Of a stretch of DNA of 64,000 nt, positions 3,011 through 50,995 are shown piece by piece. Every line of letters begins with the position of its first letter. Within the stretch, counting starts at the first letter, position 1. Origin of the DNA: Actinomycetes bacterium (lineage in GTDB: Bacteria > Actinomycetota > Acidimicrobiia > Acidimicrobiales > CADCSY01); NCBI GenBank assembly GCA_031398745.1, contig JANNNX010000009.1:4038-68037 (forward strand). The letters run 5' to 3'. The translations under genes and the position numbers were made by a program. A model generated the notes under the pieces. That model was not told the origin of the DNA. It worked only from the letters and a program-made list of their open reading frames with translations, and did not search any database.

Positions 3011-3038
3011 CCGGCCGCCGGGCCCCTCGGCGCGTCCC

Positions 3039-34231: not shown

Positions 34232-35353
34232 GTGGCCACCGACTACTACGAGCTGCTCGGGGTGTCCCGGGCGGCCAGCCAGGACGACATCAAGCGGGCC
34301 TACCGGCGCCGGGCTCGGGAGCTGCATCCCGACGCCAACCAGGGCGATCCCGAGACCGAGGAGCGGTTCAAGGAGGTGGCCCTGGCCTACGAGGTCCTCT
34401 CCGACCCCGAGCGCCGACAGCGCTACGACCGCTTCGGGCCCGACGGGCCCCGGGGTGCGGGCGGCGACCCGTTCGCCGGCTTCGGCAACGCCAGCGGCGG
34501 GTTGGGTGACCTCTTCGACGCCTTCTTCACCGGTGGGGGGGGAGGCGGTCGGGCGGCGTCCGGTCCGCCCCGGGGCATCGACCTCGAGGTGGTGCTCGAT
34601 CTCGCCTTCGAGGAGGCGGTGTTCGGGGCATCCTCGAACCTGAGCGCCCGACTGCCGGTCACCTGCGACACCTGCGACGGCAACGGCGCGGCGCCGGGCA
34701 CGTCGCCGTCGACCTGCGCCGAGTGCGGCGGTGCCGGCCAGATCCGCCGGGTGCGCCAGTCGATCCTCGGGCAGATGGTGACGGCGTCGGTCTGCCCTCG
34801 CTGCCGGGGAGTGGGCCAGACGGTGGCCTCTCCGTGCCCATCGTGTCGGGGGGACGGGGTCCGGACCGAGGAGCGCCAGTTCCGGATCGACGTCCCGGCC
34901 GGCGTCGACGATGGCACCACTCTTCGGCTCAGCGGACGCGGGGGTGCCGGTCCCCGTCAGGGTGACCCGGGCGACCTCTTGGTGCACCTCCGGGTGGCTC
35001 CCCACCCACGGTTCACCCGCTCGGGCATCGACCTGCTCCACCAGCTCCACATCGGCGTCGCCCAGGCTGCGCTGGGCACCGAGGTCGCGCTCGAGACCCT
35101 CGACGGCACCGAGGCGGTGGTCGTGCCCCGTGGCACCCAGAGCGGCCTGGTGCTGCGGCTCCGCGACCGGGGAGTCCCCCAGGTGCGGGGCCGGGGCCGG
35201 GGCGACTTGCTGGTCGAGGTGGTCGTCGACACCCCGATCGAGCTTTCCGAGGAAGAAGAGGCTCTGCTGCGTGACCTGGCCGCACGGCGGGGCGAGGCGG
35301 TGTCCCCCCCGCCCTCGGGGCTGGTGTCGAAGCTCCGCAGCGCCTTCAAGTAG
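34232..35353 (+). CDS. dnaJ: Chaperone DnaJ
   Basis: J-domain HPD, G/F region, four CxxCxGxG repeats. Confidence 0.96.
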   Translation: MATDYYELLGVSRAASQDDIKRAYRRRARELHPDANQGDPETEERFKEVALAYEVLSDPERRQRYDRFGPDGPRGAGGDPFAGFGNASGGLGDLFDAFFTGGGGGGRAASGPPRGIDLEVVLDLAFEEAVFGASSNLSARLPVTCDTCDGNGAAPGTSPSTCAECGGAGQIRRVRQSILGQMVTASVCPRCRGVGQTVASPCPSCRGDGVRTEERQFRIDVPAGVDDGTTLRLSGRGGAGPRQGDPGDLLVHLRVAPHPRFTRSGIDLLHQLHIGVAQAALGTEVALETLDGTEAVVVPRGTQSGLVLRLRDRGVPQVRGRGRGDLLVEVVVDTPIELSEEEEALLRDLAARRGEAVSPPPSGLVSKLRSAFK

Positions 35354-35357
35354 ACGG

Positions 35358-36062
35358 GTGGGCGGCCTGCGGTCGGCGGCGGCCCACGTCTTCGTGGCCG
35401 ACCTCGAGACCCCGTCGCTCGACCCGGTCGATCGCCACCACCTGGCGCGGGTCCTGCGGATCCGCGCCGGTCAGGCGGTCTCGGCCTCCGACGGCGCCGG
35501 CCGCTGGCGGCCGTGCCGCATGGCGGCCAGCGGGGAGCTCGAGCCCGACGGCGAGGTCGTGGCCCAGGCCCGGCCGTCGCCGCCGATCACCGTCGCCTTC
35601 GCGCTGACCAAGGGCGACCGCCCGGAGGTGGCGGTGCAGAAGCTGACCGAGGTGGGGGTCGACGTCATCGTCGCCTTCGGAGCCGAGCGCTCGGTGGCCC
35701 GGTGGGACGAGGAGCGGGCACAGGGCCGCATCGAACGGCTCCGGCGGGTGGCCCGGGAGGCGGCCATGCAGAGCCGGCGGGTCTGGCTCCCCGACGTCCA
35801 GCCGCTCGCCACCTTCGCCGAGGTGGCGGGTCGCCCCGGCGCGGCTCTGGCCGAGCCCGGCGGCGGGCCGCCGTCGCTGGCGCGACCGACGGTGCTGGTC
35901 GGTCCGGAGGGGGGCTGGTCGGCCTCCGAACTGGCCGTCGGGGTCGCCACTGTGGGGCTCGGCCCGGCCGTGTTGCGGGCCGAGACCGCGGCCGTGGTGG
36001 CCGGTTCGTTGCTGGTCGCGCTCCGTGACGGCCTGGTCACGGAGATAGATGCACCCGGTTGA
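35358..36062 (+). CDS. rsmE: 16S rRNA m3U1498 methyltransferase
   Basis: HHLARVLR, QKLTEVGV, EAAMQSRR, VGPEGGW, VLRAETA. Confidence 0.93.
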   Translation: MGGLRSAAAHVFVADLETPSLDPVDRHHLARVLRIRAGQAVSASDGAGRWRPCRMAASGELEPDGEVVAQARPSPPITVAFALTKGDRPEVAVQKLTEVGVDVIVAFGAERSVARWDEERAQGRIERLRRVAREAAMQSRRVWLPDVQPLATFAEVAGRPGAALAEPGGGPPSLARPTVLVGPEGGWSASELAVGVATVGLGPAVLRAETAAVVAGSLLVALRDGLVTEIDAPG

Positions 36063-36207
36063 TGCTTGCAATGGTGTAGTTCGCACCGCGATCATGGGCC
36101 AGGGCAGGTGCAGTCGGACGCTCCGGTGTCCGGTTGCCGGTGGTGGCGCGAGCGCATAGCGTGGTCAACGGGTTGGAGACGGCCCCCGGGCGGTTGAGGA
36201 CGTGCTA

Positions 36208-36756
36208 ATGAGCGGTGCCGAGATACTCGAACCTGGGGCGCCAGGCTCTACCTATGCCGTCCAGGTGGGGGCGCGGCTCCGCGCCATCCGCAAGCAGAAG
36301 CGCCTTTCGCTCCAGGAGGTCGAGGCCACTTCCGACCAGGAGTTCAAGGCGTCGGTGCTCGGCGCCTACGAGCGGGGCGAGCGGGCCATCTCGGTGCCCC
36401 GACTCCAACGCCTGGCCCGCTTCTACAGCGTGCCGGTCGACCAGCTCCTGCCCCGGGAAGACGAGCCGGGCGCGGCGTTCATCGACCTCGAGCGGGTGGC
36501 GGCCGACGCTCGAGCCGGCGGCCTGCCCGACGCTCCGGTCACCATCGACCTGGTCCGCCTGGAGACGATGTCCGGCGACGAGGCTCGCCTGCTCGGCCGC
36601 TACCTCGAGATGATCCAGGTGCAGCGGGGCGACTTCAACGGTCGCATGCTCACCATCCGCCGCGACGACATGCGCGCCGTGGCCTGCCTGCTCGACACCA
36701 ACCCCGACACCGCTCGCGGCCGGTTGGTCGAGCTGGGCCTCCGCATCGGCGTCTGA
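36208..36756 (+). CDS. bldD: BldD-like transcriptional regulator
   Basis: GARLRAIR.Q..LSL..VE...FKASVLGAYERGERAISV.RL; C-terminal QRGDFNGRMLTIRRDD matches RxD-X8-RxxD. Confidence 0.85.
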   Translation: MSGAEILEPGAPGSTYAVQVGARLRAIRKQKRLSLQEVEATSDQEFKASVLGAYERGERAISVPRLQRLARFYSVPVDQLLPREDEPGAAFIDLERVAADARAGGLPDAPVTIDLVRLETMSGDEARLLGRYLEMIQVQRGDFNGRMLTIRRDDMRAVACLLDTNPDTARGRLVELGLRIGV

Positions 36757-36776
36757 GCCCGGGGGCCGGGTACCCG

Positions 36777-37859
36777 GTGCCGGGGTCGGCCGACGGCGGC
36801 GACCATGGGCGCTTCGGCGTCTACGTGCACGTCCCGTTCTGCACCCGCCGCTGCGACTACTGCGCCTTCGCCACCTGGGATGATCGCCCCCAGCTGTTGG
36901 ACGCCTACCTCGACGGGTTGCGGCGCGAGATCGACCGAGCGGCCCCCGAGCTCCCGGTGGCCACCAGCGTCTTCTTCGGTGGGGGAACGCCGTCGCTGCT
37001 GAGCCCGGGCCAGCTGGCCTCGGTGCTGGGCGGGCTCCGGCTGGCGCCCGGGGCCGAGGTGTCGGTCGAGTCGAACCCCGACACCCTCAGCCCCGACAAG
37101 CTGGCCGGCTACCGGGCCGCGGGGGTGACCCGCATTTCGCTCGGGGTGCAGTCGATGGTGCCCCACGTGCTCGAGGCGCTGGGCCGTGAGCACGTGGTGG
37201 CCAACGTCGAGCGGGCGGTCGAGGGGATCCTCGCCGCTGGGTTCGAGAGCTGGAACGCAGATCTGATCTACGGCGCGGCGGGGGAGTCGCTGGCCGACTG
37301 GCGCACGACGCTGGCCGCGGTGGTCGACCTCGAGCCCCCGCACGTGAGTGCCTACGGGCTCACCGTCGAGCCGGGCACGGCCCTGGCCGACGACCCGTCG
37401 CGCCATCCCGACGACGACCACCAGGCCGACGAGTACGTGCTGGCCGACGACGGGCTGCGGGCCGCCGGGCTGGCCAACTACGAGGTGTCGAACTGGGCGC
37501 GCCCCGGTCACGAGTGTCGGCACAACCTCTTGTACTGGTCGCAGGGGGAGTACCGGGGCTTCGGGTGCGCGGCCCACTCGCACGTGGCCGGTCGCCGCTG
37601 GTGGAACGTACGGACCCCCGAGCGCTATCTCGACCTGGTGAACGACGGCGGCTCGGTCGAGGCCGGCAGCGAGACTCTGGGCCCCGACGAGCGCCGCCTG
37701 GAGGGCCTCCAGCTGTCGCTACGAACGGCTACCGGAGTGCCGGCCGAGGCACTACCCCTCGACCAGGTCGAGGGGTTGGTCGAGGGGCAAGGGGATCGGG
37801 TGGTGCTCACCCGTCGGGGCCGACTGCTGGCGAATGAGGTCGCGGTCAGGCTCCGCTGA
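36777..37859 (+). CDS. hemW: Radical SAM heme chaperone
   Basis: YVHVPFCTRRCDYCAF, FFGGGTPS, YEVSNWA, HNLLYW. Confidence 0.92.
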   Translation: MPGSADGGDHGRFGVYVHVPFCTRRCDYCAFATWDDRPQLLDAYLDGLRREIDRAAPELPVATSVFFGGGTPSLLSPGQLASVLGGLRLAPGAEVSVESNPDTLSPDKLAGYRAAGVTRISLGVQSMVPHVLEALGREHVVANVERAVEGILAAGFESWNADLIYGAAGESLADWRTTLAAVVDLEPPHVSAYGLTVEPGTALADDPSRHPDDDHQADEYVLADDGLRAAGLANYEVSNWARPGHECRHNLLYWSQGEYRGFGCAAHSHVAGRRWWNVRTPERYLDLVNDGGSVEAGSETLGPDERRLEGLQLSLRTATGVPAEALPLDQVEGLVEGQGDRVVLTRRGRLLANEVAVRLR

Positions 37860-39114
37860 GCTCGACCTGCACCGTCGATCCGTCGGCCCGGGTGACGACG
37901 AGGTCGGTGCAGGCGTCGCCGTCCACGTCGGTGGCGGTGGCCTCCCGGGCGTCGGCGACCGCCCCGACGGCGGTGGCCGCCAGGTGGGTGCCGGCTGCCG
38001 GCCACCGCTCGACCACCCACAGCTCGCCGGTGGCGGGACGCAGCACCAGGGGGGTGGCCGACCCGTCGCAGTCCCAGTCGCCCGTCCGGACGACGTCGCC
38101 GGTCTGGCCCAGGGTCCAGGTCGACCCGGCCACCCGGACGGTCTGACCCTCGACCTCGACCTGATCGGGACAGCCGTCGCCGTCGACGTCGTGGCCGAGA
38201 TCGGCGTCGATCGGTGGGCAACCGGGAGGCCACAGGCGGGCGGGCTCGGTCGCCGGCTCGGTGTCGGTTGTCGTCGTGGTCGTGATCGTGGTTGTGGAGG
38301 AGGCGGTGGTGGAGGTCGGGCTGGTACTCGACGTGGCAACGCGGGGGGCGGGTGTGTCGACCGGCGCTCGGCGGACCTGGATCGTCGCCCTCGGCGTGGC
38401 CTCCTCGTCGAGGACGAGCACCCCGGCCGCCGCCGCGGCCATCGCCACCAGGCCCCCGGCGGCCGCCAGGGCCAGCCGCCGCCTCGGGTGCCGGCGACCG
38501 GGAGCCGTTCTCGGTCGCAGCACCCGGTCGGCGACGTCGTCGTCGGCCGGCACCAGGGCCGCCAGAGCATCGGCCACCACCGCCATGGTCGGCCGGGCCG
38601 AGGAATCGGCGGCGCGGGCCCGGGAGGCGATCGCTCGTAGTTCGTCGCGCTGGCGGTCGAATCCCGGCCCCGCCAGCTGGCTCACGAGGTCGCCGAGGGC
38701 CTTGACGTCGTCGGCCGGCGTCGGCCCCGGGATCGGCCAGACCCTCCACCCCACGACCACCGGCGATCCCCAGGCGTCGAGGAGCAGGTGGCGGGCGGCG
38801 AGCCGACCGTGGACGATGCCGCGGGCGTGGAGGTCGGCCAGCGTCGCCGCGACCTCGGCCACGACGCGGACCAACGCGTCGACATCATCGGCGTCGCTGA
38901 GGTCGGTCGCGGTGGTGGACCCGACATAGCGGGTGCGCACGGCCGGCGGGTCCTCGACGACCTCGACCAGCTCGACCACCCCGGGATGGACCGCCCGTCG
39001 CAGAAGGTCGGCCAGTGCGGCGGCCTCGCCACCGTCGTCGCCGGCTGGCCAGCGCCTCTCGAGCACCGGGGTCCCGTCGGTGGCGGTGGTGAGGTGGGTC
39101 GTGGAAGTCGGCAC
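37846..39114 (-). CDS. Degenerate Ser/Thr kinase-like domain, TM helix, Thr-rich linker and DxDxDG repeats
   Basis: HPGVVELVEV, LADLHARGIVHGRL, RPTM; TM LALAAAGGLVAMAAAAAGVLVL; DVDGDGCPD, DWDCDG, DVDGDACTD. Confidence 0.7.
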   Translation of the reverse strand: MPTSTTHLTTATDGTPVLERRWPAGDDGGEAAALADLLRRAVHPGVVELVEVVEDPPAVRTRYVGSTTATDLSDADDVDALVRVVAEVAATLADLHARGIVHGRLAARHLLLDAWGSPVVVGWRVWPIPGPTPADDVKALGDLVSQLAGPGFDRQRDELRAIASRARAADSSARPTMAVVADALAALVPADDDVADRVLRPRTAPGRRHPRRRLALAAAGGLVAMAAAAAGVLVLDEEATPRATIQVRRAPVDTPAPRVATSSTSPTSTTASSTTTITTTTTTDTEPATEPARLWPPGCPPIDADLGHDVDGDGCPDQVEVEGQTVRVAGSTWTLGQTGDVVRTGDWDCDGSATPLVLRPATGELWVVERWPAAGTHLAATAVGAVADAREATATDVDGDACTDLVVTRADGSTVQVELSGA

Positions 39115-39184
39115 GGCCCCACTCTGTCGTGGAAAGTAGGGAAATGCAATGAAAGATCACTAGTGGCGGATAGCCTTTCGTTCG

Positions 39185-39766
39185 ATGTCGACCCCGCCTT
39201 TCGGCCAGGAGCCGTCCGACACCGGGCTGTCAGAGCTGCCGGCGCTGCTCGATGCCGGGCGCCAGCAGGCCGACGCCGAGGAGCGTCGTCGGGCGCGAGA
39301 TCTGCGGGGTTTGGCGGTCGACCACGCGACGCTCGCCGGCGTCCTTGTCGACCTGGCCGAGCGTGGGCACCCGGTGGTGATCCGGACGATTGCCGGTGAG
39401 ATTCACCGGTCCTGGGTCGTCGCCGTCGGCGAGGACGTCACCGGCCTGGCCGAAGAGGCGGGCGGTCACGTCCTGACCTGGTGCCGAGTCGACGCCATCG
39501 TCTCCATCACCGACGCCGTCGGCGAGCCGACGAGGGTGCCCGGCGACCGCCGGCCGCCACCGGGTGGTCGCCTGGTGGAGGTGGTCGCCGACCTGGCCGC
39601 GGAACGGGCGTCGGTGGCCGTGACCCTCATCGACGGGTCGGTCGTGGCCGGTCGACTCGACGCCGCCGGGCCGAGGGTGGTCGTGCTTCGGCTCGACGGC
39701 GACCCGCCCCGGACCTGCTACCTGGCGTCGGACCGGCTGGCCTCGCTGCGCTTGCGCTCGGGGTAG
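39185..39766 (+). CDS. Hypothetical protein with two tandem Sm/LSm-like repeats
   Basis: Repeated units DLAERGHPVVIRTIAGEIHRSWVVAVGED and DLAAERASVAVTLIDGSVVAGRLDAAGPR; TAGCCT upstream of ATG. Confidence 0.6.
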   Translation: MSTPPFGQEPSDTGLSELPALLDAGRQQADAEERRRARDLRGLAVDHATLAGVLVDLAERGHPVVIRTIAGEIHRSWVVAVGEDVTGLAEEAGGHVLTWCRVDAIVSITDAVGEPTRVPGDRRPPPGGRLVEVVADLAAERASVAVTLIDGSVVAGRLDAAGPRVVVLRLDGDPPRTCYLASDRLASLRLRSG

Positions 39767-39963
39767 AGGTGGTCGAGCTCGCCGGGAAGGATCCGGTGGC
39801 GCTCGAGGTAGTCATCGACGTCGGCCGCCTTGAGCCGGTACACACGACCCATCCGGTAGGCGGGAATCTCGCCCTCGTTGATGAACCGGTAGAGGGTGCG
39901 GGTGGCGATGCCCAGCCGCTGGGCAGCCTCATCGGTGCTCAGCCAGAGGAGTTCGGCAGCCAT
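39718..39963 (-). CDS. Excisionase-family (MerR-like/BldC-like) HTH DNA-binding protein
   Basis: WLSTDEAAQRLGIATRTLYRFINEGEIPAYRMGRVYRL. Confidence 0.88.
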   Translation of the reverse strand: MAAELLWLSTDEAAQRLGIATRTLYRFINEGEIPAYRMGRVYRLKAADVDDYLERHRILPGELDHLYPERKRSEASRSDAR

Positions 39964-40102
39964 GGGAGCGGACCCTAGCCCTGCCCGGCCGACCCTGCTC
40001 GCCTTCCTTGTCATCTCCTGCCATCTGGTTGCACGGTTCGAGGCGAACTGATACTCAGTGAACCAGTACGACCACGGAGCACGGTCGAAGTGACCGAGGT
40101 CC

Positions 40103-40852
40103 GTGGCTGTGCGGGCGCGATTGGTGGGCGGTTTCGAGGGAGGCCGGGTGGTGGCGGTGGACGTAGAGGCGCGCGGCAACGGCGCGGCGCGAGGCGAGCT
40201 GGGGGAAGCCGGCCCGCGTCAGGTGATCCGACCCCGCTCGGCGCGGGGGTCGCTTCCGGGGGCGCGTCCGGTCGTCGGGGGTCTGCTCGTGGCCCTTAGT
40301 GTCCTCGGTCTGCTGGCCAGCTATCGGGCCGCCACCGACGCGCCGTCGACCCGTTACGTCGTCGCCGCCCGCGATGTCGGACCCGGCCAGCAGCTGGAGG
40401 CTGCCGACCTCGACCTGGTCGAGATCGACCTGCCACCCACGCTGGCCGGCCACGCCTTCAAAGACGTCGCCACCCTGCTCGGCGCCACCTCGATCGCGGC
40501 CGTCGAAGCCGGTGAACTCGTGCAGCACGGCGCCGTGACCCGGCCCGAAGGGGCCCCCGAGCGGGCCCAGATCTCCATCCCGGTCGCACCCAGCCGGGCG
40601 CTGCAGGGCCAGCTCCGCCCCGGTGACCGGGTCGACGTCATCGTCACCGACGATCGTTCGGGGGGTCCGGTCACCACCACCGTCGTGGCGGGCGCCACCG
40701 TGGTGGAGGTCTTCGGGGTCGGCGACGCGCTGGGCGCGGGCAGTTCGATCACCGTGACGCTGTCGGTGCCGCCGTCGGTCCTCGAGGCCGTGGCCGAGGC
40801 CGCGTCGGTAGGGGACGTGACCCTGGCTCGGACGACCGGCGTGACCTCGTGA
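40103..40852 (+). CDS. SAF-domain Flp pilus assembly protein (CpaB/RcpC-like)
   Basis: TM helix, VVAARDVGPGQQL (SAF), LRPGDRVDVI; start uncertain. Confidence 0.8.
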   Translation: MAVRARLVGGFEGGRVVAVDVEARGNGAARGELGEAGPRQVIRPRSARGSLPGARPVVGGLLVALSVLGLLASYRAATDAPSTRYVVAARDVGPGQQLEAADLDLVEIDLPPTLAGHAFKDVATLLGATSIAAVEAGELVQHGAVTRPEGAPERAQISIPVAPSRALQGQLRPGDRVDVIVTDDRSGGPVTTTVVAGATVVEVFGVGDALGAGSSITVTLSVPPSVLEAVAEAASVGDVTLARTTGVTS

Positions 40853-42153
40853 CTTCCGCCCGCTTCGTCGTCCTCGGCCTTGCTCGTCCGCGCGCCTCGT
40901 GGTTCACCGCCATCGGACGATGGTCGACGTCGGGCGCGGTCCCGGTCGAGTTCGTGCGCTGCCTGTCGCCCGAGGAGCTTCGTGCTCGCCTGGACTCCGG
41001 TCGTCGATGGTCAGCGGTGCTCCTCGACGGGGGACTTCCGTCCGTGGATCGCGACCTGCTGTCGCTCTGCGGGGCCGCGGCGGCCGCCCCGCTGGTGGTG
41101 GCGGCCGGCGCCACGGGCGTCGACTGGTTGGCGCTGGGGGCCGCCGGTGTCCTGCCGGAGGACTTCCAGCGCCAGGACCTGGTGGCCGCCCTCGACAGCC
41201 ACGCGGTGGTCGTCGATACCGCCGCTCCCGCGGTGTCGGTGGATCGGGTCTCCGATGAGGGCGCGACGGGTGGCGGCGCCCTCCTGGTGGCGGTGTGCGG
41301 GAGCGGTGGGGTCGGCGCGTCGACGGTGGCCATGGCCACGGCTCAAGGGCTGGCCCGGGCGCGACCCCAGGATGAGGTCCTGCTCGTCGATCTCGCACTT
41401 CGGGCCGAGCTGGCGGTGTTGCACGACGTCGGCGACGTGGTCCCCGGGATTCAGGAGCTGATCGATCTCCATCGCCTCCGTGATGCCGGTCGGGAGGAGG
41501 TGCGGGCGCTCACGTGGGACGTGGTCGACCGTGGCTACCGGCTGCTGCTGGGTCTTCGGCGACCGACGGCATGGACGACGCTGCGTCCGACCGCCTTCCG
41601 GGCCGCGTTCGCCAGCCTGTCCGTACAGTTCGATGCTGTCGTCTGCGATCTGACGGCCGACTTCGAGAGCGAGACCGACACCGGCTCAGCCGACATCGGC
41701 GATCGCACCTTGATGGCTCGCACCGCGGTGACGTCGGCCGATGTCGTGCTGGCGGTGGGGGCGACGGGTACCAAGGGCGTGCACAGCCTGGTGCGGTTGC
41801 TGGGTGACCTGGCAGTAGTCGGGGTGCCCGCCGGCCGGGTGGTCCCGGTGCTGAACCAGGCGCCCCGGTCGCCGGTGGCCCGGGCGGTGCTGACCCGGAC
41901 CATCGCCGAGTTGTCGGCGCCGGTGATGGCCCGGGGTCGGACCTCGAGCCCGGTCTACCTGCCCACCCGCCGGGTCGACGACGCCATTCGCGACGTCACC
42001 GCGATGCCGGGTCCGCTTCCCGAGCTGCTGGCCGGGGCGGTGCTCGCGGTGGTGGCTCGCCTCGGTGTCCACGAATCGGGTCGGGGTTGGGTCGATGCCC
42101 CGGTGCCCGTGCGCCCGGGGTCGGTCGGCACCTACGCCGGGGAGTCGACGTGA
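40849..42153 (+). CDS. CpaE/TadZ/Ssd-like MinD-type protein
   Basis: Deviant Walker A GSGGVGAST, LLVDL, AVVCDL; first in Tad operon order. Confidence 0.75.
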   Translation: MTSARFVVLGLARPRASWFTAIGRWSTSGAVPVEFVRCLSPEELRARLDSGRRWSAVLLDGGLPSVDRDLLSLCGAAAAAPLVVAAGATGVDWLALGAAGVLPEDFQRQDLVAALDSHAVVVDTAAPAVSVDRVSDEGATGGGALLVAVCGSGGVGASTVAMATAQGLARARPQDEVLLVDLALRAELAVLHDVGDVVPGIQELIDLHRLRDAGREEVRALTWDVVDRGYRLLLGLRRPTAWTTLRPTAFRAAFASLSVQFDAVVCDLTADFESETDTGSADIGDRTLMARTAVTSADVVLAVGATGTKGVHSLVRLLGDLAVVGVPAGRVVPVLNQAPRSPVARAVLTRTIAELSAPVMARGRTSSPVYLPTRRVDDAIRDVTAMPGPLPELLAGAVLAVVARLGVHESGRGWVDAPVPVRPGSVGTYAGEST

Positions 42154-43454
42154 GCCGGTCGAACGAGCGGTCGCCGCTGGAAGAGATCGAAGGGAGAGTG
42201 CTCGCCCGGGCGAAGCACGAGCACCTCGACATTGACCACCACGACGGCTTGTTGTCGCTGCGCGACATGGTCGACGAGGAGGTCGGGCGGTGGAACGACG
42301 ATCACCGCCGAGGGTTGCGGCCCTACGAGCTGGCGGATCCGTCAGGAGTCGCGGACCGGGCCACCCGGAACCTGTCCGGCTACGGGCCCCTCGAGCCCCT
42401 GCTGGCCGATCCGGACGTCTGGGAGATCATGATCAACAGTCCGGATGCCATTTTCGTCCGGCGTCATCGCGGGCGATCGGGGTACCACGACGAGACGTTC
42501 CACGACGACGAGCACGTCCTGCGCACGCTGACCAAGATCCTCGACGACGCGTCGGGGGCCCACCGCAAGCTCGACCCGGCCGAGGGACTCCAGGACGCGC
42601 AGCTCGAGGACGGTGCACGGCTGCACATCGTCCATGGCGATATCGGTCGAGGCGGCCACGTCCTGGTCAACATCCGCCGCTTCACCGGGACGCGCTTCCG
42701 TTCGCTCGATGAGCTGGTGGCACTCGACATGTTGGATCCCGACCCCGCCGCGTTCCTCCGAGCAGCAGTGAAGGCGCGCCTGTCGATCGTGTTCGCCGGC
42801 CCGCCGGGAGCGGGCAAGACGACCTTGCTGTCGTGTTGCGCGGCCGAACTCGACCCGTCGCTGCGGGTGGCGGTGGCCGAGGAGGTCTTCGAGGTCGACG
42901 TGCCCCTGCCCAACGTGGCCAGCATGCAGACCCGACCAGCTCGGTCCGAGCGGTCCGAGATCGACCTGCGGCGCCTGGTCGCCGGGTTCCTTCGTATGGC
43001 GCCCGACGTCGCCATCGTGGGGGAGGTACGCGATCGCGAGGCTCTGCCCCTCCTCTTGACCCTCTCGTCGGGGGTGAAGGGATACACGACCATCCACGCC
43101 GGCTCTGCCCGCCAGGCCCTGACCCGGTTGCGGTTCATCTGCCAGCTGGCCGACACCCGTTCCGAGCTGCCGATGTCGGCGCTCAACAGCCTGGTCAGCG
43201 AGGCGATCGATCTGGTCGTGCACTGCCGACGGGTCGAGGGCCGACCGGTGGTGGGTGAGATCCTCGCCGTCGAGGACGTGCGGTCCGGACCGGAGGCGAC
43301 CGCCTTCACGGTCACCGACCTCTACCGCCGAGCCGAGCCGGGGTCGCCGTTGCTCTGGACCGGAAACGTGCCGATCCGGGCCCGCCCGACCTTCGAGGAG
43401 GCGGGGATCGACATCGGGTCTGTCCTCGATCCCCGCCGGGAGGGACCGCGATGA
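42150..43454 (+). CDS. CpaF/TadA pilus assembly ATPase
   Basis: YGPLEPLL.DP.V.EIMIN, GPPGAGKTT, LRMAPD.AIVGEVR, TTIHA. Confidence 0.92.
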   Translation: MSRSNERSPLEEIEGRVLARAKHEHLDIDHHDGLLSLRDMVDEEVGRWNDDHRRGLRPYELADPSGVADRATRNLSGYGPLEPLLADPDVWEIMINSPDAIFVRRHRGRSGYHDETFHDDEHVLRTLTKILDDASGAHRKLDPAEGLQDAQLEDGARLHIVHGDIGRGGHVLVNIRRFTGTRFRSLDELVALDMLDPDPAAFLRAAVKARLSIVFAGPPGAGKTTLLSCCAAELDPSLRVAVAEEVFEVDVPLPNVASMQTRPARSERSEIDLRRLVAGFLRMAPDVAIVGEVRDREALPLLLTLSSGVKGYTTIHAGSARQALTRLRFICQLADTRSELPMSALNSLVSEAIDLVVHCRRVEGRPVVGEILAVEDVRSGPEATAFTVTDLYRRAEPGSPLLWTGNVPIRARPTFEEAGIDIGSVLDPRREGPR

Positions 43455-44350
43455 CGGCGCTGGTCCTGGCCATGGTGGCGGGTTACGGCGTCCACCTGGT
43501 GTTCAGCGGGGCCGTGCTCGGTTGGCACGGACTGGGCCCGGGACCGGCCTCCACACGGGCCGCGGGCGGGAACCCGCTCGCCCTGTGGCGGTGGGCGAGT
43601 GCGGCCGCGCCGACACCGGAGTTAGTGGCCGCGCTGGTGGTCGTGGGCGTGAGCGCGGCGGCCGGCACGTTCGCGGTCTTCGGTGGGCTGGTCGCTCCCG
43701 TGGTCGCCGCCACCCTGGCGATGACCGCACCGGTGGCCGCCTCCCGGGCGGCGCACGAGCGCCAGCGCCTCGCCGCCCGTGGTGCCTGGCCTCGGATGAT
43801 CGAGGAGGTCCGCCTCGGAGCTACGGCGCTCGGACTTTCCATCCCGGCTGCTCTCTTCGAGGCCGGGAGTAGGGCGCCGACGGTGATGCAGGGCGCCTTC
43901 GTGGCCGCCCAGCGCGAGTGGCTGCTGTCCACCGATTTCGAGCGCTCCCTCGACGTCCTGACCACCGAACTGGACGACGCCACGGCCGACGCGGTTGCCG
44001 AGACGCTCCTCGTGGCCCACCAGATCGGGGGCACCGAGATCGACCGGACCCTGGCGTCGCTGGCCGAGGACAGGATCCTCGACCTCGAGGGTCGTCGCGA
44101 CGCCGAAGCTCGTCAGGCGGGCGCCCGCTTCGCCCGGTGGTTCGTCCTGGTGGTGCCCGCCGGCATGGCCCTGGTCGGACTCGGCGTCGGTACCGGCCGG
44201 GCCGCCTACGGCGAGGCCGGGGCCCAGCTGGTCGTGGCCGCCGCGCTGGCATCGATCGCCGGTTGCTGGCTGTGGGCCAGCACCATCATGCGCCTCCCGC
44301 GGGAGACCAGGGTCTTCGCTGGCCGGCGGCCCCTCGGAGAGCCCCGGTGA
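43451..44350 (+). CDS. TadB-like (type II secretion system F family) membrane protein
   Basis: AWP..IE, DA..D.V.ETL, TM helices; follows TadA. Confidence 0.8.
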   Translation: MTALVLAMVAGYGVHLVFSGAVLGWHGLGPGPASTRAAGGNPLALWRWASAAAPTPELVAALVVVGVSAAAGTFAVFGGLVAPVVAATLAMTAPVAASRAAHERQRLAARGAWPRMIEEVRLGATALGLSIPAALFEAGSRAPTVMQGAFVAAQREWLLSTDFERSLDVLTTELDDATADAVAETLLVAHQIGGTEIDRTLASLAEDRILDLEGRRDAEARQAGARFARWFVLVVPAGMALVGLGVGTGRAAYGEAGAQLVVAAALASIAGCWLWASTIMRLPRETRVFAGRRPLGEPR

Positions 44351-45249
44351 CCAGTCGGCTGCCGTTCGCCTCGCTGATCCTGCTCTGGGTCGGAGCGACC
44401 TTGCTGTTGAGTGAGCGACGCTGGTTCAGTCGGGTCTCGCTGGTCTCTCGCCTCGGACCCCACGCCGTCGGGGGAGTTCGGGGCGCCGGGTCGGGGGTGC
44501 TGTCGGTCGGATCCCTGCGCGACCTGGTGCTGCCGCTGGCCGAGGTCGTCGCCGGCTGGCTCCGTGGACTCGGGCTGACCGACGATGTCGAGCGGCGACT
44601 GGCCCGGGTCCATGCCGAGTCGGACGTGGGGTCGTTCCGCGCCCGTCAGGTCGCGTGGGCGCTCGGCGGACTGGTGGGTGGCGCCTTGGTGGCCGCCGCC
44701 CTCGGCGCCCCCCCAGCGATCGCCCTCCTCCTCCTTCTCGCCGGCCCGGTGGTGGGTGTGCTGGTGCCCGAGCAGCTCCTGGCGCTGCAGGCGAGGACCT
44801 GGCAGCGACGGCTCTTCCTCGAGCTCCCGGTGGTGAGCGAGCAGCTGGCCCTGCTCCTGTCGGCGGGCTGGTCGCTCGGTGCTGCCCTCGGCCGGGTCTC
44901 GGAGCGGGGCTCGGGGGCTTGCGCCCGTGATCTCGACCGGGTGGGCCGACGCGTCCGTCAAGGCCTTTCCGAGACCGAGGCACTGCGGGAGTGGGCCGAG
45001 GTCGCGGCGTTGCCAGCGGTCGATCGCCTGGTGTCGGTCCTGGCCCTCCATCGACACACGTCCGACCTCGGCCGACTGCTCTCGGAGGAGGCCCGGGCGC
45101 TACGTCGAGCGGTGCACCGAGAGCTCATCGAGAGCGCCGAGCGGCGGGCCCAGCAGGTCTGGATCCCGGTGACGGTCGCCACGCTCGTGCCCGGCGTGGT
45201 CTTCCTGGCGATCCCATTCGTCGACGCCCTCGACCGCTTCGGCGGGTGA
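44347..45249 (+). CDS. TadC-like (type II secretion system F family) membrane protein
   Basis: ELPVVSEQLALLLSAG.S, C-terminal WIPV..TL.PG..FLA.P. Confidence 0.8.
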   Translation: MTSRLPFASLILLWVGATLLLSERRWFSRVSLVSRLGPHAVGGVRGAGSGVLSVGSLRDLVLPLAEVVAGWLRGLGLTDDVERRLARVHAESDVGSFRARQVAWALGGLVGGALVAAALGAPPAIALLLLLAGPVVGVLVPEQLLALQARTWQRRLFLELPVVSEQLALLLSAGWSLGAALGRVSERGSGACARDLDRVGRRVRQGLSETEALREWAEVAALPAVDRLVSVLALHRHTSDLGRLLSEEARALRRAVHRELIESAERRAQQVWIPVTVATLVPGVVFLAIPFVDALDRFGG

Positions 45250-45280
45250 CGGCGTACCAGTTCCCGAGGGAGGAGAGCAG

Positions 45281-45472
45281 ATGGTGGAGATGCTGAGGGT
45301 GTTGCGGGCAGTGGCCGACCGGCTCCGTGGCCAACGAGGTGAGGGCGTCATCTCGACGGCCATCGCCGTGTTGATCATGGCCGTGATCGGTTTGGCCATG
45401 TGGGTGACCTTCGACCGGGTCTTCGACGATGCCGGCGAGCGGGTGGAGGATCACGTCCAGCAGATCGGCTGA
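45281..45472 (+). CDS. Flp-type major pilin (non-canonical)
   Basis: 63 aa; basic leader ending RG then hydrophobic helix; strong RBS GGAGGAG. Confidence 0.7.
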   Translation: MVEMLRVLRAVADRLRGQRGEGVISTAIAVLIMAVIGLAMWVTFDRVFDDAGERVEDHVQQIG

Positions 45473-45866
45473 GGGGAGCGACGCCGGCGTCGGCCTGATC
45501 GGCACGCTGGTCGGCGTCGTTGTCATCCTCAGCTTCTTGCTGCTCGCGGTCCAGGTCGTGCTCGGTCTCTACGAGACATCGATGGTCACTGCTGCGGGGT
45601 TCGACGCGGCCCGTCTGGTTGCCGGCTCAGCCGGTGGCGAGGCGAACGAGTCAGCGGCCGAGGACCACGCCCGATCGCTTCTCGGGGCCCGGGGTGCGGC
45701 ACTGCGGTTCGAGTGGGCCTACCGCGACACCGACTCGATTCCCGGGGTGGACGTGGTCGAGCTCCACCTGGTGGCGGCGCCCCGGCGGCCGCTGCTGCCA
45801 CTCGTGCCCGACCAGCTCTTGGGCGTGGACCGGACCTTCGTCGTCCGAATCGAGCAGGTCCGGTGA
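45429..45866 (+). CDS. TadE-like minor pilin
   Basis: DAG plus hydrophobic helix, AA..DAARL.A motif; start uncertain. Confidence 0.65.
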   Translation: MPASGWRITSSRSAEGSDAGVGLIGTLVGVVVILSFLLLAVQVVLGLYETSMVTAAGFDAARLVAGSAGGEANESAAEDHARSLLGARGAALRFEWAYRDTDSIPGVDVVELHLVAAPRRPLLPLVPDQLLGVDRTFVVRIEQVR

Positions 45867-46357
45867 GCGGGTTCGTTCGCCGCCGGCTGTCCGACGAGCG
45901 GGGGGTGGTCGGGGGCTTCGAGGCCCTGCCGTTCGGCATCCTGGTGTTCGTCGTCGGGCTGTTGCTCCTGGTCGACGGCTGGGCGGTAGTCGACGCCAAG
46001 CTGGCGGTCTCGGCCGCGGCCCGGGAGGCGACGCGGACCTTCGTCGAGTCGGGCTCCGGCTCGACCCAGGCAGCCGCAGCCGCGGGCGAAGCGGCCGCCC
46101 TCGATGCCGTTCTTGCCCAGCAGGCCCATCCCGGTGCGATCGAGGTTCGGTGGGAGGAGCCGGTGCGTCTCGAGCGCTGCGCGCCGGTGACGGCAGTGGT
46201 GCGCCAGCGGGTGGCTCTGGTGAACCTTCCCTGGATTGGCGGCATCGGACCCGGTGCGATCACGGTCGAGGGACGCCACCGGGAGGTGGTGGACCCGTAT
46301 CGCGACGGCGTGCCCGGCACCGAGGACGGCCTGGTCGAGAGCGGGCCGTGCGGATGA
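45863..46357 (+). CDS. TadE-like minor pilin
   Basis: DERG plus hydrophobic helix, AAAREATR motif. Confidence 0.75.
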   Translation: MSGFVRRRLSDERGVVGGFEALPFGILVFVVGLLLLVDGWAVVDAKLAVSAAAREATRTFVESGSGSTQAAAAAGEAAALDAVLAQQAHPGAIEVRWEEPVRLERCAPVTAVVRQRVALVNLPWIGGIGPGAITVEGRHREVVDPYRDGVPGTEDGLVESGPCG

Positions 46358-46833
46358 CCTCGCCCTCTGGCGAATCCCGGCCGCTCGATGGCGAGCGGGC
46401 CAGCGTCCTGGCCCTGCTGCCGGCGGCGGTGCTGGTGTTCCTCGTCCTCGGGGCCCTCGCGTTCGATGTTGCAGTCGCCTTCCAGGGAGAGCGCCAGGTG
46501 GCCAACTTGGCCGCCGCGGCGGCCAACGACGCCGCCACCCGGGGTCTCGATCTCGACCGCTTCTATGCCGACGGATCGATCGTTCTCGATCCGTCGAATG
46601 TCGAGCAGATCGTGGGCGACGCGGTCGAGATCCAGCGATTGGGAGACGACGCCCTGGAGGACGTCGACGTCGTCGTGGCCCTGGGGGCCGAGGGCGCGTC
46701 GGTGACGGTCACCGTGTCGGCCCGGGTCCCCTACGTGTTCTCCAAGGCCCTACCCGGAGGCCCCGACAGTGTGACGGTGTCGGCGTCGAGCACGTTCGAC
46801 GCCGTCGCCCCGGGCTTGCCGGATCCGCCCTGA
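46354..46833 (+). CDS. TadG/TadE-like pilin
   Basis: ERAS plus hydrophobic helix, AFD, LAAAAANDAA, VTVTVSARV. Confidence 0.7.
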   Translation: MTSPSGESRPLDGERASVLALLPAAVLVFLVLGALAFDVAVAFQGERQVANLAAAAANDAATRGLDLDRFYADGSIVLDPSNVEQIVGDAVEIQRLGDDALEDVDVVVALGAEGASVTVTVSARVPYVFSKALPGGPDSVTVSASSTFDAVAPGLPDPP

Positions 46834-46842
46834 GGCGCCAAT

Positions 46843-47589
46843 ATGCATGAGATGACACGAAAGACATGTGCTGTGGGCCGAGCCACCGGCTGGCTGACGC
46901 TGTTGACCCTGACCGGATCGGTCGCCTGGTTCACCGGTGAGCCGCTGCGGGTGCCCGGCGCGGGTCTGGCGAACTGGCTGGCGTGGATGGAGGCCCGTGG
47001 TCCCGACGGAGCCGCGCTCGACGTGGGTCGCGTGGCGGTGCTGGCCGTCGTCGCCTACCTGGTGGTGGTGACGCTGGCTGGAGGTGCCGCCCGAGCTCTC
47101 GGGCAGGTGTCGGTGACCGCCTGGCTCGACCGCTGGACGCTGCCGATGGTGCGTCGGGTGTTGGCCGGGGGGACGGCGGCGGCGATGGTGGCGACGTTGG
47201 CGGCGACGCCGGTCGCCAGCGCTGGCTCGCTACCGTCGTCCACGGGTGCTCGCCTGACGGTGGTGTCACCCAGCCCGCCGACCACACCGAGTGCGGCACC
47301 CGTGATGAGGGCGGGGACTGTGGTGGCGCCGACCGACCCCGGTCCGCAACCCTCAGTCACCAGCGAGGCGCCCGCCACCCCGGTCGAACGGGTGCTGGTG
47401 CCCGGCGACCACCTCTGGTCGGTGGCGGCCGAGGTGGTGGCCGGGCAGCTCGGCCGGTCGCCGAACGAGGGCGAGGTGGCCCGGTACTGGGCTCGCCTGG
47501 TGGCGGCCAATGTCGACCGGCTGGCCGACCCGGCCAATCCCGACCTGGTCTTCGCGGGCGACACCGTGGTCCTGCCGCCGGCTGCCTGA
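46843..47589 (+). CDS. Membrane-anchored LysM peptidoglycan-binding protein
   Basis: N-terminal TM helices, Pro/Thr linker, VPGDHLWSVA...NPDLVFAG..V.LP. Confidence 0.8.
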   Translation: MHEMTRKTCAVGRATGWLTLLTLTGSVAWFTGEPLRVPGAGLANWLAWMEARGPDGAALDVGRVAVLAVVAYLVVVTLAGGAARALGQVSVTAWLDRWTLPMVRRVLAGGTAAAMVATLAATPVASAGSLPSSTGARLTVVSPSPPTTPSAAPVMRAGTVVAPTDPGPQPSVTSEAPATPVERVLVPGDHLWSVAAEVVAGQLGRSPNEGEVARYWARLVAANVDRLADPANPDLVFAGDTVVLPPAA

Positions 47590-47704
47590 GCGACGTTCCG
47601 GCGACCTTCTGCGGGCCATCCTCGCAGGTCAGGGGGTTCCCAGGAACCGCCATGTACGGGCGTGGCAGGCTTCTGGGTACTCGTGGTGCGAGAGGAGGTC
47701 CCCC

Positions 47705-48907
47705 GTGACTCTCGTGAGCACGTCTGCGCCGACCTCGGTGCACAACGGTCCCGTCCGCATCACTCCCCGTCGCCCCCGGCTCTCGCTCGGCCTGGTGGGG
47801 ACCTTCCCGCCGACCCAGTGCGGCATCGCCACCTTCACCGCTGCCCTGCACCGGACCCTGGCCGACCACGGTGGAGACCTCGGGGTCGTCGAGCTGGTCG
47901 ACGGAGTCGGCCTGGTCCCGCGCTCGGCATCCGCCGGGGTCGTGCACCAATGGCGACACCACGACCGGGGCTCGCTCACCGAGGCCATCGACGTCCTCGA
48001 CCGCTTCGACGCCACCATCATCCAGCACGAGTACGGCATCTTCGGCGGTCGCGACGGCGACGAGGTGCTCGAGCTCGTCGATCGGACCGCCCGGCCGACC
48101 ATCGTCGTGCTCCATACCGTGCTGCGCGACCCCTCACTCCGCCAGCGCAGCATCATCGAGCTCCTGGGGGAGCGGGCCGGCGCCCTGGTAGTGATGAGCG
48201 AGGCGGCTCGACGTCGGCTGCTCAGCCGCTACCGGGTGCCGCCGGGCGCCGTCTCGGTGATCCCCCACGGTGCGGCCGACAACCGCCGGCCCCTGCCCCC
48301 GCCCGGCGATCGCCCCGTGATCCTGACCTGGGGCCTGCTCGGCCCGGGCAAAGGCATCGAGTGGGTCATCGACGGCCTCGACGCGGTGCGCGGCCTCGAC
48401 CCCGCCCCCCGCTACCTAGTGGCCGGCGAGACCCACCCCAAGGTCAAGGCCGCGCACGGCGAGACCTACCGCCAGTCGCTGCTCGAGCGGGCTCAGGCCC
48501 GGGGGGTCGCCCACCTCGTGGAGTTCGACGACCGCTACCGCAGCGTGGCTCAGCTCAACGAGGTGGTGGCCCAGGCCAGCGTGGTCGTCCTGCCCTACGA
48601 GTCGACCGAGCAGATCACCTCCGGGGTGCTGGTCGACGCCCTGGCCTCGGGACGCCCGGTCGTCGCCACCGCCTTCCCCCATGCCCTCGAGGTGCTCGAA
48701 GGCGGGGCTGGGGTGATCGTGCCCCACGGCGACCCGGCCGCCCTCGGTCGCGCCCTGCGGGATCTGCTGACCGACCGCGACCGCCTCGAGGCCATGGCCC
48801 AGAGAGCCACGTCCCAGGCGGTCGACCTGCTGTGGCCGGCCGTCGGCGAGCGGTACCTGGCGTTGGCCCACCAGCTGGTGGCCGACGACTTCGTCGCCAC
48901 CGCATGA
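47705..48907 (+). CDS. Glycosyltransferase family 4
   Basis: GTFPPTQCGIATF, QHEYGIFGG, WGLLGPGKGIE, QITSGVL. Confidence 0.9.
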   Translation: MTLVSTSAPTSVHNGPVRITPRRPRLSLGLVGTFPPTQCGIATFTAALHRTLADHGGDLGVVELVDGVGLVPRSASAGVVHQWRHHDRGSLTEAIDVLDRFDATIIQHEYGIFGGRDGDEVLELVDRTARPTIVVLHTVLRDPSLRQRSIIELLGERAGALVVMSEAARRRLLSRYRVPPGAVSVIPHGAADNRRPLPPPGDRPVILTWGLLGPGKGIEWVIDGLDAVRGLDPAPRYLVAGETHPKVKAAHGETYRQSLLERAQARGVAHLVEFDDRYRSVAQLNEVVAQASVVVLPYESTEQITSGVLVDALASGRPVVATAFPHALEVLEGGAGVIVPHGDPAALGRALRDLLTDRDRLEAMAQRATSQAVDLLWPAVGERYLALAHQLVADDFVATA

Positions 48908-49947
48908 CCCTGGCGCCGCCGCTCGAGCACCTCTGGCGGCTGAGCGACGACACCGGCACCATCGAGCACGCCACCGGCGATGTGCCCCAGCTCGCCCACG
49001 GCTACTGCGTCGACGACGTCGCCCGGGTGTTGCTGGTGGCCGGCCGGGCGGCCCGCCTCGACGGCGATGCCGCCGACCCCCGCTGGCGGCGACTGGCCGA
49101 GGTCTCGCTGGCTTTCCTGCAGCACATGGCCCGGCCCGACGGGCGGTTCCACAACCGCCGGGCGGTCGGCGGGGAGATCACCGACGAGGTCGGGTCGAGC
49201 GACTGCTGGGGCCGGGCGGTGCACGCCCTGGGGGAGACCGCCACCGGGCCGTGGCCCGACCTGGCCGACGCGGCCCTGGGCGCCCTTCCCGCGGCCCTGG
49301 AGGTCCGCTCGTCGCACCCCCGCTCGATGGCCGAGGCCGCACTGGGCGCGGCCGCGCTGGTGGTGGCGGGCGACGAACGCGTGCAGTGGGCCGCCTGCGG
49401 GCTCCTCTCCGACGCCGTGCGCACCCTCCGCGCCCTCGGTCCGGCCGACGCCAGCGACGACGCCGAGTGGCCGTGGCCCGAGCCCCGGCTCAGCTGGGGC
49501 AATGCCCTCCTGCCCGACGCGTTGGTGGCGGCCGGCACCGCCCTCGATGACCGCGCCACCCGCGCCCGGGGCCTCGCCCAGCTCGGCTGGCTCGCCGACC
49601 AGGAGCACCACGACGGCCACCTGAGCGTCACCCCGGTGGGCGGCCGGGGGCCGGGCGACCCCCGACCCGGGTTCGACCAGCAGCCGATCGAGGTCGCCAC
49701 CTTGGCCGACGCCGGCCTGCGGGCCTGGCTGACCACCGGCGACGAGCGGTGGCGGACGCTGGTCTTCGAGGCCCGAGCCTGGTTCGAGGGCGACAACGAC
49801 GTCGGCGTGGCCATGGGCGACCCCGACACCGGCGCCGGCTTCGACGGCCTCGAGGTCGACGGCCGCAACGACAACCGGGGGGCCGAGTCGACGTTGGCCT
49901 ACCTGGCCACCTCGATCGCGGCCGCCCGGGCTGCTCAGGATCGGTGA
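48904..49947 (+). CDS. Six-hairpin glycosidase-like protein associated with GT4
   Basis: DDTGTIEHA, GYCVDDVAR, WPWPE..LSWGNA, FDQQPIE, N.NRGAEST. Confidence 0.75.
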   Translation: MTLAPPLEHLWRLSDDTGTIEHATGDVPQLAHGYCVDDVARVLLVAGRAARLDGDAADPRWRRLAEVSLAFLQHMARPDGRFHNRRAVGGEITDEVGSSDCWGRAVHALGETATGPWPDLADAALGALPAALEVRSSHPRSMAEAALGAAALVVAGDERVQWAACGLLSDAVRTLRALGPADASDDAEWPWPEPRLSWGNALLPDALVAAGTALDDRATRARGLAQLGWLADQEHHDGHLSVTPVGGRGPGDPRPGFDQQPIEVATLADAGLRAWLTTGDERWRTLVFEARAWFEGDNDVGVAMGDPDTGAGFDGLEVDGRNDNRGAESTLAYLATSIAAARAAQDR

Positions 49948-50954: not shown

Positions 50955-50995
50955 AGGCGTGTCACTTTGTCATTCCACCGGTCGGCACGGGTTGC

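Follow-up and report, generated by a model that had tools for sequence, protein, structure and literature searches.

A secretin-less Tad/Flp pilus operon of Acidimicrobiia and its probable companions: a tandem Sm-like protein, a membrane pseudokinase, a LysM-like protein and an excisionase-type regulator

Here we describe a Tad/Flp pilus locus in a 64,000-nucleotide stretch of the genome of an Actinomycetes bacterium of the order Acidimicrobiales (contig JANNNX010000009.1 of assembly GCA_031398745.1). The whole stretch is called the window and all positions refer to it. The locus contains a secretin-less, monoderm-type Tad/Flp operon with cpaB, a gene in the position of tadZ, tadA, tadB, tadC, a flp-like gene and three minor-pilin-like genes. 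This subtype of Tad system is specific to a set of lineages, the Acidimicrobiia and some other non-Actinomycetes classes of the Actinomycetota. Four further genes accompany it and are probably its functional companions. They encode an excisionase-type helix-turn-helix (HTH) protein, a membrane pseudokinase (PsK), a LysM-like membrane protein and a cytoplasmic protein with two Sm-like units (the Sm protein). The analysis shows gene content, folds, loss of catalytic residues, co-occurrence and adjacency. The Tad core and the pairing of an HTH_17 gene with cpaB-cpaE are of already known kinds. The novelty lies in the Sm protein, PsK and the LysM-like protein, to which the searchable literature assigns no part in any type IV filament system.

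The building and control of Tad pili in bacteria without an outer membrane are poorly known. The Sm protein, PsK and the LysM-like protein are concrete candidates for missing envelope and cytoplasmic parts and for the regulation of piliation or DNA uptake, in Acidimicrobiia that are widespread in soil, freshwater and the sea. To our knowledge, the Actinomycetota have long been held to lack Hfq. If the association is functional, an Sm/Hfq-fold protein tied to a surface machine would also be relevant to the long-standing question of whether Hfq-like functions exist in these bacteria.

The association was followed in a sample of 251 genomes of the class, 27 of them Tad-positive, with strong Sm matches taken at E<=1e-20 and CpaE-position proteins at E<=1e-30. 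The CpaE-position protein is present in 27 genomes and the Sm protein in 25, and all 25 Sm genomes lie within the 27. The Sm gene lies within 3 kb of the Tad cluster in 21 of the 25, at 6.3 kb in one and apart from it in three. Even within a single genus (g3) two genomes have both Sm and Tad and two have neither. Of 15 weaker Sm matches in other families of the class, 10 have a more divergent TadA/CpaB cluster no farther away than about 6 kb, and at three of these loci, L113-L115, the Sm gene is directly divergent from cpaB. The preliminary description of this locus had named, as a finding that would refute its proposal, a lack of co-occurrence of the genes at the head of the locus with this Tad type in other genomes. 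The reverse, co-occurrence, was found for Sm, HTH, PsK and the LysM-like gene alike, and the head genes are not chance neighbours of the operon.

A species-wide scan gave 65 Sm loci, mostly from Acidimicrobiales and a few from Nitriliruptoraceae. A convergent HTH gene, often overlapping the Sm gene, is present at 43 of the 59 loci with at least 500 bp of downstream sequence. Downstream sequence of 2.5 kb or more is available at 48 loci. CpaB or CpaE is found there at 35 of these, of which 33 also have the HTH gene and two do not, and at one locus the HTH gene is present without Cpa. Ten Sm loci without Tad were followed further, and eight of these ten genomes have a strong CpaE-position orthologue elsewhere. 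In a sample of the phylum the Sm protein is found in 45 of 401 genomes and in none of the large families of the sample. Outside the class, 16 of the 19 Sm loci examined have TadA or CpaE and one more has a weak CpaE match. A LysM-like gene lies next to or near Sm at 14 of these 19, and loci L129, L133 and L134 form a single-strand array that begins LysM-Sm-CpaB-CpaE-TadA. Adjacency of Sm and Tad thus occurs in at least four different gene orders. Because the association recurs across several classes and at least four gene orders and survives unlinking, it is more than inherited synteny would give, and we therefore take the four genes as functional companions of the operon.

The Sm protein (39185-39766, plus strand, 193 aa) was recognized by fold prediction. 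The AlphaFold2 model has a predicted local distance difference test score (pLDDT) of 91.2 and consists of a long helix (15-47) followed twice by a helix and five strands (50-110 and 130-190), so that the Sm fold, a helix and a bent five-stranded sheet, is present in both halves. The best Foldseek matches in the PDB are all Hfq, at E of about 2e-03 and a template modelling score, TM(target), of 0.7-0.8 over about 68 residues. These results bear out the label of a tandem Sm protein. The exhaustive aligner VIA-align placed PSV ORF137 first (2x4j_A, Z 11.2, 109 residues aligned over 53-192), followed by Hfq, Sm, spore-coat Sm-like and WYL domains at Z 4.6-7.2. No Pfam or NCBIfam family matches the protein. 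The 33 homologues collected are all proteins from metagenome-assembled genomes (MAGs), one of them labelled 'snRNP-like' by its source, and the clusters nearest to it in the Atlas are actinobacterial throughout, none of them having a name. The family has an invariant motif, LxDLAER, and is mildly acidic, with an isoelectric point mostly of 5-6.

Each half of the protein resembles Hfq, Sm and LSm proteins in having an N-terminal helix and a bent five-stranded sheet, and each carries a GxhxxhGxDh pattern that resembles the Sm1 motif. It differs from Hfq in having two Sm units per chain behind a long extra helix, and the identity is 13-20%. No Sm2/YKH-type motif is visible in this mildly acidic family, nor is a recognisable Hfq/Sm RNA-binding motif present in its alignment. 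The protein is also not the previously proposed 'actinobacterial Hfq' (bioRxiv 10.1101/026195), as that proposal concerns a different protein, DUF3107.

The HTH gene (39718-39963, minus strand) encodes an 81 aa winged HTH protein of the Xis/excisionase type, with matches to HTH_17 (E 5.8e-16) and to the excisionase model TIGR01764 (E 1.2e-18). It is convergent with the Sm gene, with a 3' overlap of 49 bp, and divergent from cpaB across a spacer of 139 bp. Orthologues favour the ATG at 39963 as its start over 40014 or 40179. An alignment of 42 sequences has a mean column identity of 54%, and the family carries a conserved extra C-terminal tail, RIxPGxLEHLYPE. The single sequence retrieved nothing from the PDB at E<=0.01; relatives emerged by profile search, the nearest solved ones being the mycobacteriophage excisionase Xis Gp37 (E 2.9e-06) and RdfS (E 0.001). 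The protein had been called Xis/BldC-like. The first half of this label holds; as to the second, the matches of the profile search at E<=1 were Xis Gp37 and RdfS along with MerR-type chains, none of them named BldC, and the relation to BldC appears to extend as far as a shared HTH_17/MerR-like fold class.

The HTH gene lies within 2.5 kb upstream of cpaB/cpaE and faces cpaB in 25 of the 27 Tad-positive genomes, and it still faces cpaB in all five genomes examined in which Sm is elsewhere. A high-scoring HTH subfamily is found in 29 of the 401 phylum genomes, including 26 of 27 strong-Sm genomes, and is absent at E<=1e-14 from the large families of that sample. One genome of genus g3 (G002) has a high-scoring HTH orthologue (E 2.1e-34), with no Sm or CpaE-position match found, perhaps as a relic from a cluster that has since been lost. 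The stretch 38900-40300 yielded neither a sigma-70 consensus promoter nor an intrinsic terminator. A TTGCAC-N17-TACTCA element, seen by eye in the spacer between HTH and cpaB, is common to the locus of the same genus, L068.

A similar arrangement is known from Micrococcus luteus, where Mlut_14660, an HTH_17 protein of the excisionase family, is divergent from Mlut_14650 (CpaB) and Mlut_14640 (CpaE), so that, as in the window, a small HTH_17 gene is divergent from cpaB, which is followed by a cpaE/tadZ-like gene (PMC8467076). According to the accessible text of that report, comEA/EC expression and transformation change when Mlut_14660, its 5' region or the divergent cpaB is mutated, and knocking out cpaB reduces transformation about 10^4-fold (PMC8467076). 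The M. luteus locus differs in being separate from tadABC and in being followed by a PAS histidine kinase, and no Sm-like, pseudokinase or LysM gene is named in that same portion of the report (PMC8467076). The two HTH proteins are likened by position. Three loci from Microthrixaceae and related MAGs (L004, L017 and L021) recall the M. luteus layout. They have Sm, HTH, CpaB and CpaE and then, within about 2-3 kb on the opposite strand, LysM and PsK, and there is no TadA, TadB or TadC match between the Cpa genes and the LysM-PsK pair.

PsK (37846-39114, minus strand; called from its open reading frame (ORF) and codon-position GC) has a kinase-like domain at about 1-190, a transmembrane helix, a Thr/Ser-rich linker and a Cys-rich all-beta ectodomain at about 300-420. 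The AlphaFold2 pLDDT is 80.6; the kinase-like domain and the ectodomain both exceed 90 and the linker is disordered. Over 300 homologues were found. A profile of 48 of them matches kinase domains of the PDB at E 2e-17, and kinases were the top Foldseek matches (E 2e-09) and filled the list for the whole protein. The Pfam matches, PK (E 0.0036) and FG-GAP (E 0.0022), are both weak and below cut-off. The family keeps the Lys column of VAIK and the alphaC Glu of the N-lobe. The HRD motif reads H-G-R, DFG reads C/V-G-F/W, and the catalytic-loop Asn is replaced by His. PsK is therefore a kinase fold without the catalytic Asp, the Mg-binding Asp and the catalytic-loop Asn, that is, a pseudokinase, as it had been named at first sight. 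Likewise, the DxDxDG motif reported earlier is present, in three FG-GAP-like copies in the ectodomain (DVDGDGC, GDWDCDG and DVDGDAC) together with conserved cysteines. Judged by these replacements, PsK would be unable to signal by phosphorylation, and a scaffold role would fit at least as well.

A precedent for such a role is EssB/YukC of type VIIb secretion, which in the available text of the cited work is likewise a bitopic membrane protein whose cytoplasmic kinase fold lacks the catalytic residues and which is a structural part of the machine (PMC9600267, PMC3526858). The likeness is one of kinase fold. PsK differs in its ectodomain, a Cys-rich FG-GAP/DxDxDG module, and the system here is a type IV filament and not a type VII secretion system. 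The full PsK architecture of kinase-like domain and ectodomain was found, among the matches listed, in Tad-positive genomes only, in at least 18 of the 27, counting the window's own genome (G000). This number comes from a stricter first look and is a floor.

The LysM-like gene (46843-47589, plus strand) encodes a polytopic membrane protein that crosses the membrane two to three times and has a basic loop conserved in the family, a linker rich in Pro and Thr, and a LysM-like motif at its C terminus. The assignment is made at family level: of the 24 members of the family, 17 reach LysM (PF01476) at E<=1, the best at 6.5e-05, and the window copy has no match. In other genomes the PsK and LysM genes adjoin each other wherever both were found. 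Their placement differs between loci: they may follow tadG on its strand or lie upstream of Sm, or they may be split, as they are in the window. Away from Tad the order is bldD-hemW-LysM-PsK. FimV and TsaP are LysM-bearing accessory proteins of type IV pili that act with secretins in diderms. The protein of the window differs from these in being polytopic and in belonging to a monoderm, and its LysM assignment is weak.

Family support for the proteins of the operon comes from Pfam and NCBIfam for the window's own copies and from orthologue sets scanned at family level. CpaB (CpaB/RcpC; 40103-40852, plus strand) has SAF and RcpC beta-clip domains (RcpC E 3.6e-11, SAF E 2.2e-07) and scores 79.3 bits against TIGR03177 (cut-off 71). 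TadA, the TadA/CpaF-type secretion ATPase (42150-43454, plus strand), matches T2SSE (E 1.4e-30). Its best NCBIfam model is TIGR03819 (E 1.6e-53), at 182 bits and thus under the 373-bit equivalog cut-off. TadA therefore does not belong to the 'helicase/secretion neighbourhood' type of Tad system (TIGR03815-03819), an assignment that was considered and rejected on this score and on the lack of a CpaE_hom_Actino match. Of the two platform proteins, the TadC-like one (44347-45249, plus strand) matches T2SSF (E 2.3e-10). The TadB-like one (43451-44350, plus strand) is named from its position, its membrane-protein sequence and the T2SSF matches of four of eight orthologues; the window copy has none. 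Two more TadA-like ATPase genes, 33-36% identical to TadA, lie on contigs C35 and C78 of the same genome (L111 and L112), and no CpaB, HTH, Sm, PsK or LysM homologue was found within the 12-16 kb examined around them.

Above-cut-off matches to Pfam and NCBIfam families are absent for the window's Sm, CpaE-position, TadB, Flp, TadE, TadG and LysM proteins. The gene in the TadZ/CpaE position (40849-42153, plus strand, 434 aa) had been labelled cpaE. TadZ/CpaE proteins are expected to combine a receiver-like domain with a MinD/ParA ATPase. Here the P-loop is degenerate and reads G-x-G-G-x-G-A-S-T, both Walker A lysines being replaced, and a profile of 34 orthologues matches by the P-loop alone (ArsA-like Rv3679 E 1.7e-04, MinD E 0.07). 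Orthologues share a mean column identity of 55%. Since one of eight has a match, a weak one to CbiA, the label rests on position and P-loop, with no family above cut-off.

The candidate flp-like prepilin gene (45281-45472, plus strand, 63 aa) has a conserved motif, G-E-G-V-I-S-[AT]-A-I-A-V-L-I-M-A, seen in 37 orthologues, in which a Gly precedes a hydrophobic helix; DUF6133 is matched by seven of twelve. It has no Glu+5, no Tyr+6 and no Flp_Fap match, where Flp prepilins are expected to have the G/XXXXEY motif. The minor-pilin-like genes had been called tadE, tadE and tadG, and the outer two names are upheld by orthologues. For the tadE-like minor pilin (45429-45866, plus strand), TadE PF07811 is matched by seven of twelve orthologues, three of them above cut-off, and the window copy has no match. 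For the tadG-like gene (TadG/TadE-like; 46354-46833, plus strand), Tad PF13400 is likewise matched by seven of twelve, and the window copy stands at E 0.18. The gene between them (45866-46357, plus strand) has an N-terminal hydrophobic helix. Because none of twelve orthologues matches at E<=0.01, its tadE label is weak; the window copy reaches TadE at E 0.11.

The preliminary description gave a locus of 13 genes, and all were confirmed at or very near their original coordinates by the ORF listing, codon-position GC and translations. The operon is as tightly coupled as then described, with 4-bp start/stop overlaps at five junctions, and its identity as a monoderm-type Tad/Flp cluster stands. 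No dedicated prepilin peptidase (TadV) lies in the window, as had been noticed. In the genome, which is 2.36 Mb and 97.3% complete, the single PF01478 match is a PilD-type enzyme in a type IVa pilus cluster on contig C26. A prepilin peptidase shared between pilus systems is possible according to the consulted part of a survey (PMC6668835). The type IVa-like cluster (L110:3295-12156; G000:C26:6295-15156) contains PilB, PilC, an N_methyl pilin, the peptidase, a PilM-PilN fusion and PilO. Between pilD and pilM it also encodes another small HTH_17 protein, of 72 aa (L110:9596-9814), and it may be that the type IV filament loci of this lineage repeatedly include small HTH genes of the excisionase type.

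The described monoderm actinobacterial Tad/Flp pili, such as the competence pili of M. luteus (PMC4322843) and those of the survey (PMC6668835), share with the window TadA, split TadB and TadC, a short pilin that in the window is a candidate Flp, TadE/G-like minor pilins and the absence of a secretin, as far as the sampled text of both sources goes. The window cluster differs from them in including cpaB and the TadZ-position gene, in a pilin without Glu+5, in most parts falling below Pfam and NCBIfam cut-offs, and in the four extra conserved genes. The consulted part of the survey leaves many actinobacterial systems 'generic', with parts not recognised (PMC6668835). The locus had been presented as undescribed. 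This applies to Sm, PsK and the LysM-like protein as partners of Tad; the divergent HTH_17 / cpaB-cpaE arrangement was known from M. luteus (PMC8467076). A review of pseudokinases (PMC12599244) leaves pilus, Tad, FG-GAP, VCBS and Acidimicrobi unmentioned. A full-text search, outside which most subscription journals and supplements fall, returned no paper in which a protein with the Sm fold, a pseudokinase or a membrane protein with LysM is connected with Tad systems.

The functional roles and protein-protein contacts that we infer for the companions are as follows. The HTH protein most likely acts locally and controls transcription of the operon as well as of its own gene, given its position and the analogy with M. 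luteus. PsK and the LysM-like protein would form a two-gene envelope module, most likely a non-catalytic scaffold that anchors the machine in the membrane and to peptidoglycan. Such a scaffold would bridge the cytoplasmic and wall sides of a cell that has no outer-membrane Tad parts. The Sm protein is predicted to be cytoplasmic and would act with the machine or its regulation, either as an oligomeric adaptor on the cytoplasmic face or as a co-regulator that binds nucleic acid or a ligand. The surface-sensing circuit of the preliminary description, with its extracellular Ca-binding receptor and possible RNA-level regulator, is a hypothetical reading of these proteins. The pilus itself may serve adhesion or DNA uptake, either being possible.

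A bolder version of this proposal can be put forward tentatively, and we consider it rather doubtful. The Sm protein would be a true type IV filament component that forms an Hfq-like, pseudo-hexameric ring on the cytoplasmic face, or else a dedicated Hfq-fold riboregulator of pilin and competence genes. Together with PsK and the LysM-like protein it would make up an unrecognised Tad architecture of the Acidimicrobiia and allied classes. The docking site of the ring could be, for example, the LysM-like protein, through its conserved loop in the cytoplasm, or the degenerate protein in the TadZ position.

Several observations weigh against a functional tie between the operon and its four companions. 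The genomes compared come from related lineages, and shared ancestry inflates the co-occurrence counts. Two Tad-positive genomes of the class sample, G179 and G199, have no Sm match, five of the 15 weaker Sm matches, mostly short or partial, have no nearby Tad gene, and two of the ten genomes with Sm apart from Tad have no CpaE-position match. Of the 18 genomes in which PsK has its full architecture, six have it apart from the Tad cluster. Some of the adjacency is conserved chromosomal backbone, because unlinked Sm genes adjoin, and are divergent from, the housekeeping operon phoH-ybeY-corC-era, and PsK-LysM pairs away from Tad stand beside bldD-hemW. When 57 HTH-cpaB spacers were searched by exact k-mers for an operator in common, no candidate stood out clearly from shuffles. 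An RNA role of the Sm protein is without direct support, because the family is mildly acidic and has no RNA-binding motif.

Among the alternatives, the one that survives best, though we hold it to be unlikely, makes the Sm and HTH proteins the two parts of a split transcription factor, comparable to HTH-WYL regulators, in which the sensor domain is of Sm-like fold. Its targets would be competence or envelope genes in general, and cpaB-cpaE would belong to this regulatory device and not to a pilus alone. PsK and the LysM-like protein would have a separate function in the cell wall. The convergence of Sm and HTH, often with overlap, at 43 of 59 assessable loci agrees with this, as do two cases in which they stay together apart from Tad (G203 and L061) and the WYL regulators DriD, BrxR and PafBC among the fold matches of Sm (Z 4.6-5). 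The M. luteus HTH_17 / cpaB-cpaE locus, which in the accessible text stands apart from the tad genes and affects comEA/EC expression (PMC8467076), and loci L004, L017 and L021, which keep Sm-HTH-CpaB-CpaE and LysM-PsK with no TadA match between, point the same way. However, the HTH gene stays with Tad and not with Sm in all five split genomes, and in families with weaker Sm homologues these accompany Tad where no HTH is detected. LysM directly adjoins Sm, moreover, at many loci of other classes, which ties the envelope module to Sm. A prediction of the complex of Sm and HTH ended in 'no answer' with a score of 0.00 in both runs, without controls, and is uninformative either way.

It is also possible in principle, and in our judgement improbable, that the neighbourhood is simply inherited. 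The Tad operon would then sit in a conserved backbone (dnaJ-rsmE-bldD-hemW ... phoH-ybeY-era), and Sm, PsK and the LysM-like protein would be unrelated to the pilus. The sites of the unlinked genes beside phoH-ybeY-corC-era and bldD-hemW speak for this, as does the hrcA-dnaJ-rsmE-bldD-hemW backbone directly upstream in the window. It is opposed by the genome-level co-occurrence, which holds in eight of ten genomes when the genes are unlinked, and by other classes, which show the association without bldD or hemW nearby and in varied orders and orientations that include LysM-Sm-CpaB arrays. Two of four genomes of one genus, furthermore, are without both Sm and Tad, and among the matches listed the full PsK architecture occurs in no Tad-negative genome. 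A mobile-element remnant, in which the excisionase-like gene marks an integrated element that brought the Tad island, is very improbable: the nearest solved HTH relatives are a phage Xis and a recombination directionality factor of an integrative and conjugative element, and horizontal transfer is frequent for Tad loci in the survey text at hand (PMC6668835), but the NCBIfam scan of 35 flanking window ORFs found no integrase, as had been noticed before, GC is even around the locus (0.70-0.76), and the HTH gene faces cpaB in 25 of 27 genomes and carries its conserved extra tail. The operon with four functionally tied companions is thus the reading we prefer.

The DNA of the window is about 72% G+C. 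An Rfam scan of 35000-49000 at E<=1 found no family, including c-di-GMP and other riboswitches, apart from one chance miRNA-type match. Directly upstream of the locus lie hrcA, dnaJ, rsmE, a gene for a BldD-like regulator (36202-36756; BldD_C E 8.9e-20; NF050110 148 bits, below the cut-off of 250) and hemW (36777-37859). The BldD-like gene and hemW adjoin the PsK-LysM pair in many genomes (loci L097-L104), even with the Tad operon elsewhere. Farther upstream are comEA-comEC (25257-27838), holA and lepA. With leuS on one side and holA-lepA on the other, comEA and comEC, the genes of the DNA uptake channel, are 12 kb away from the Tad cluster. This proximity is relevant to the competence role that the pilus may have, but the stretch is conserved housekeeping. 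At 2093-4430 a gene for an AAA-type ATPase (MadB family, E 3.6e-96, below cut-off) adjoins a VWA-domain gene (MadC-like, E 5.1e-35, below cut-off). Downstream of the LysM-like gene is a GT4 glycosyltransferase gene, followed at 49935-51949 by two divergent GH130-like homologues of beta-1,2-mannobiose phosphorylase.

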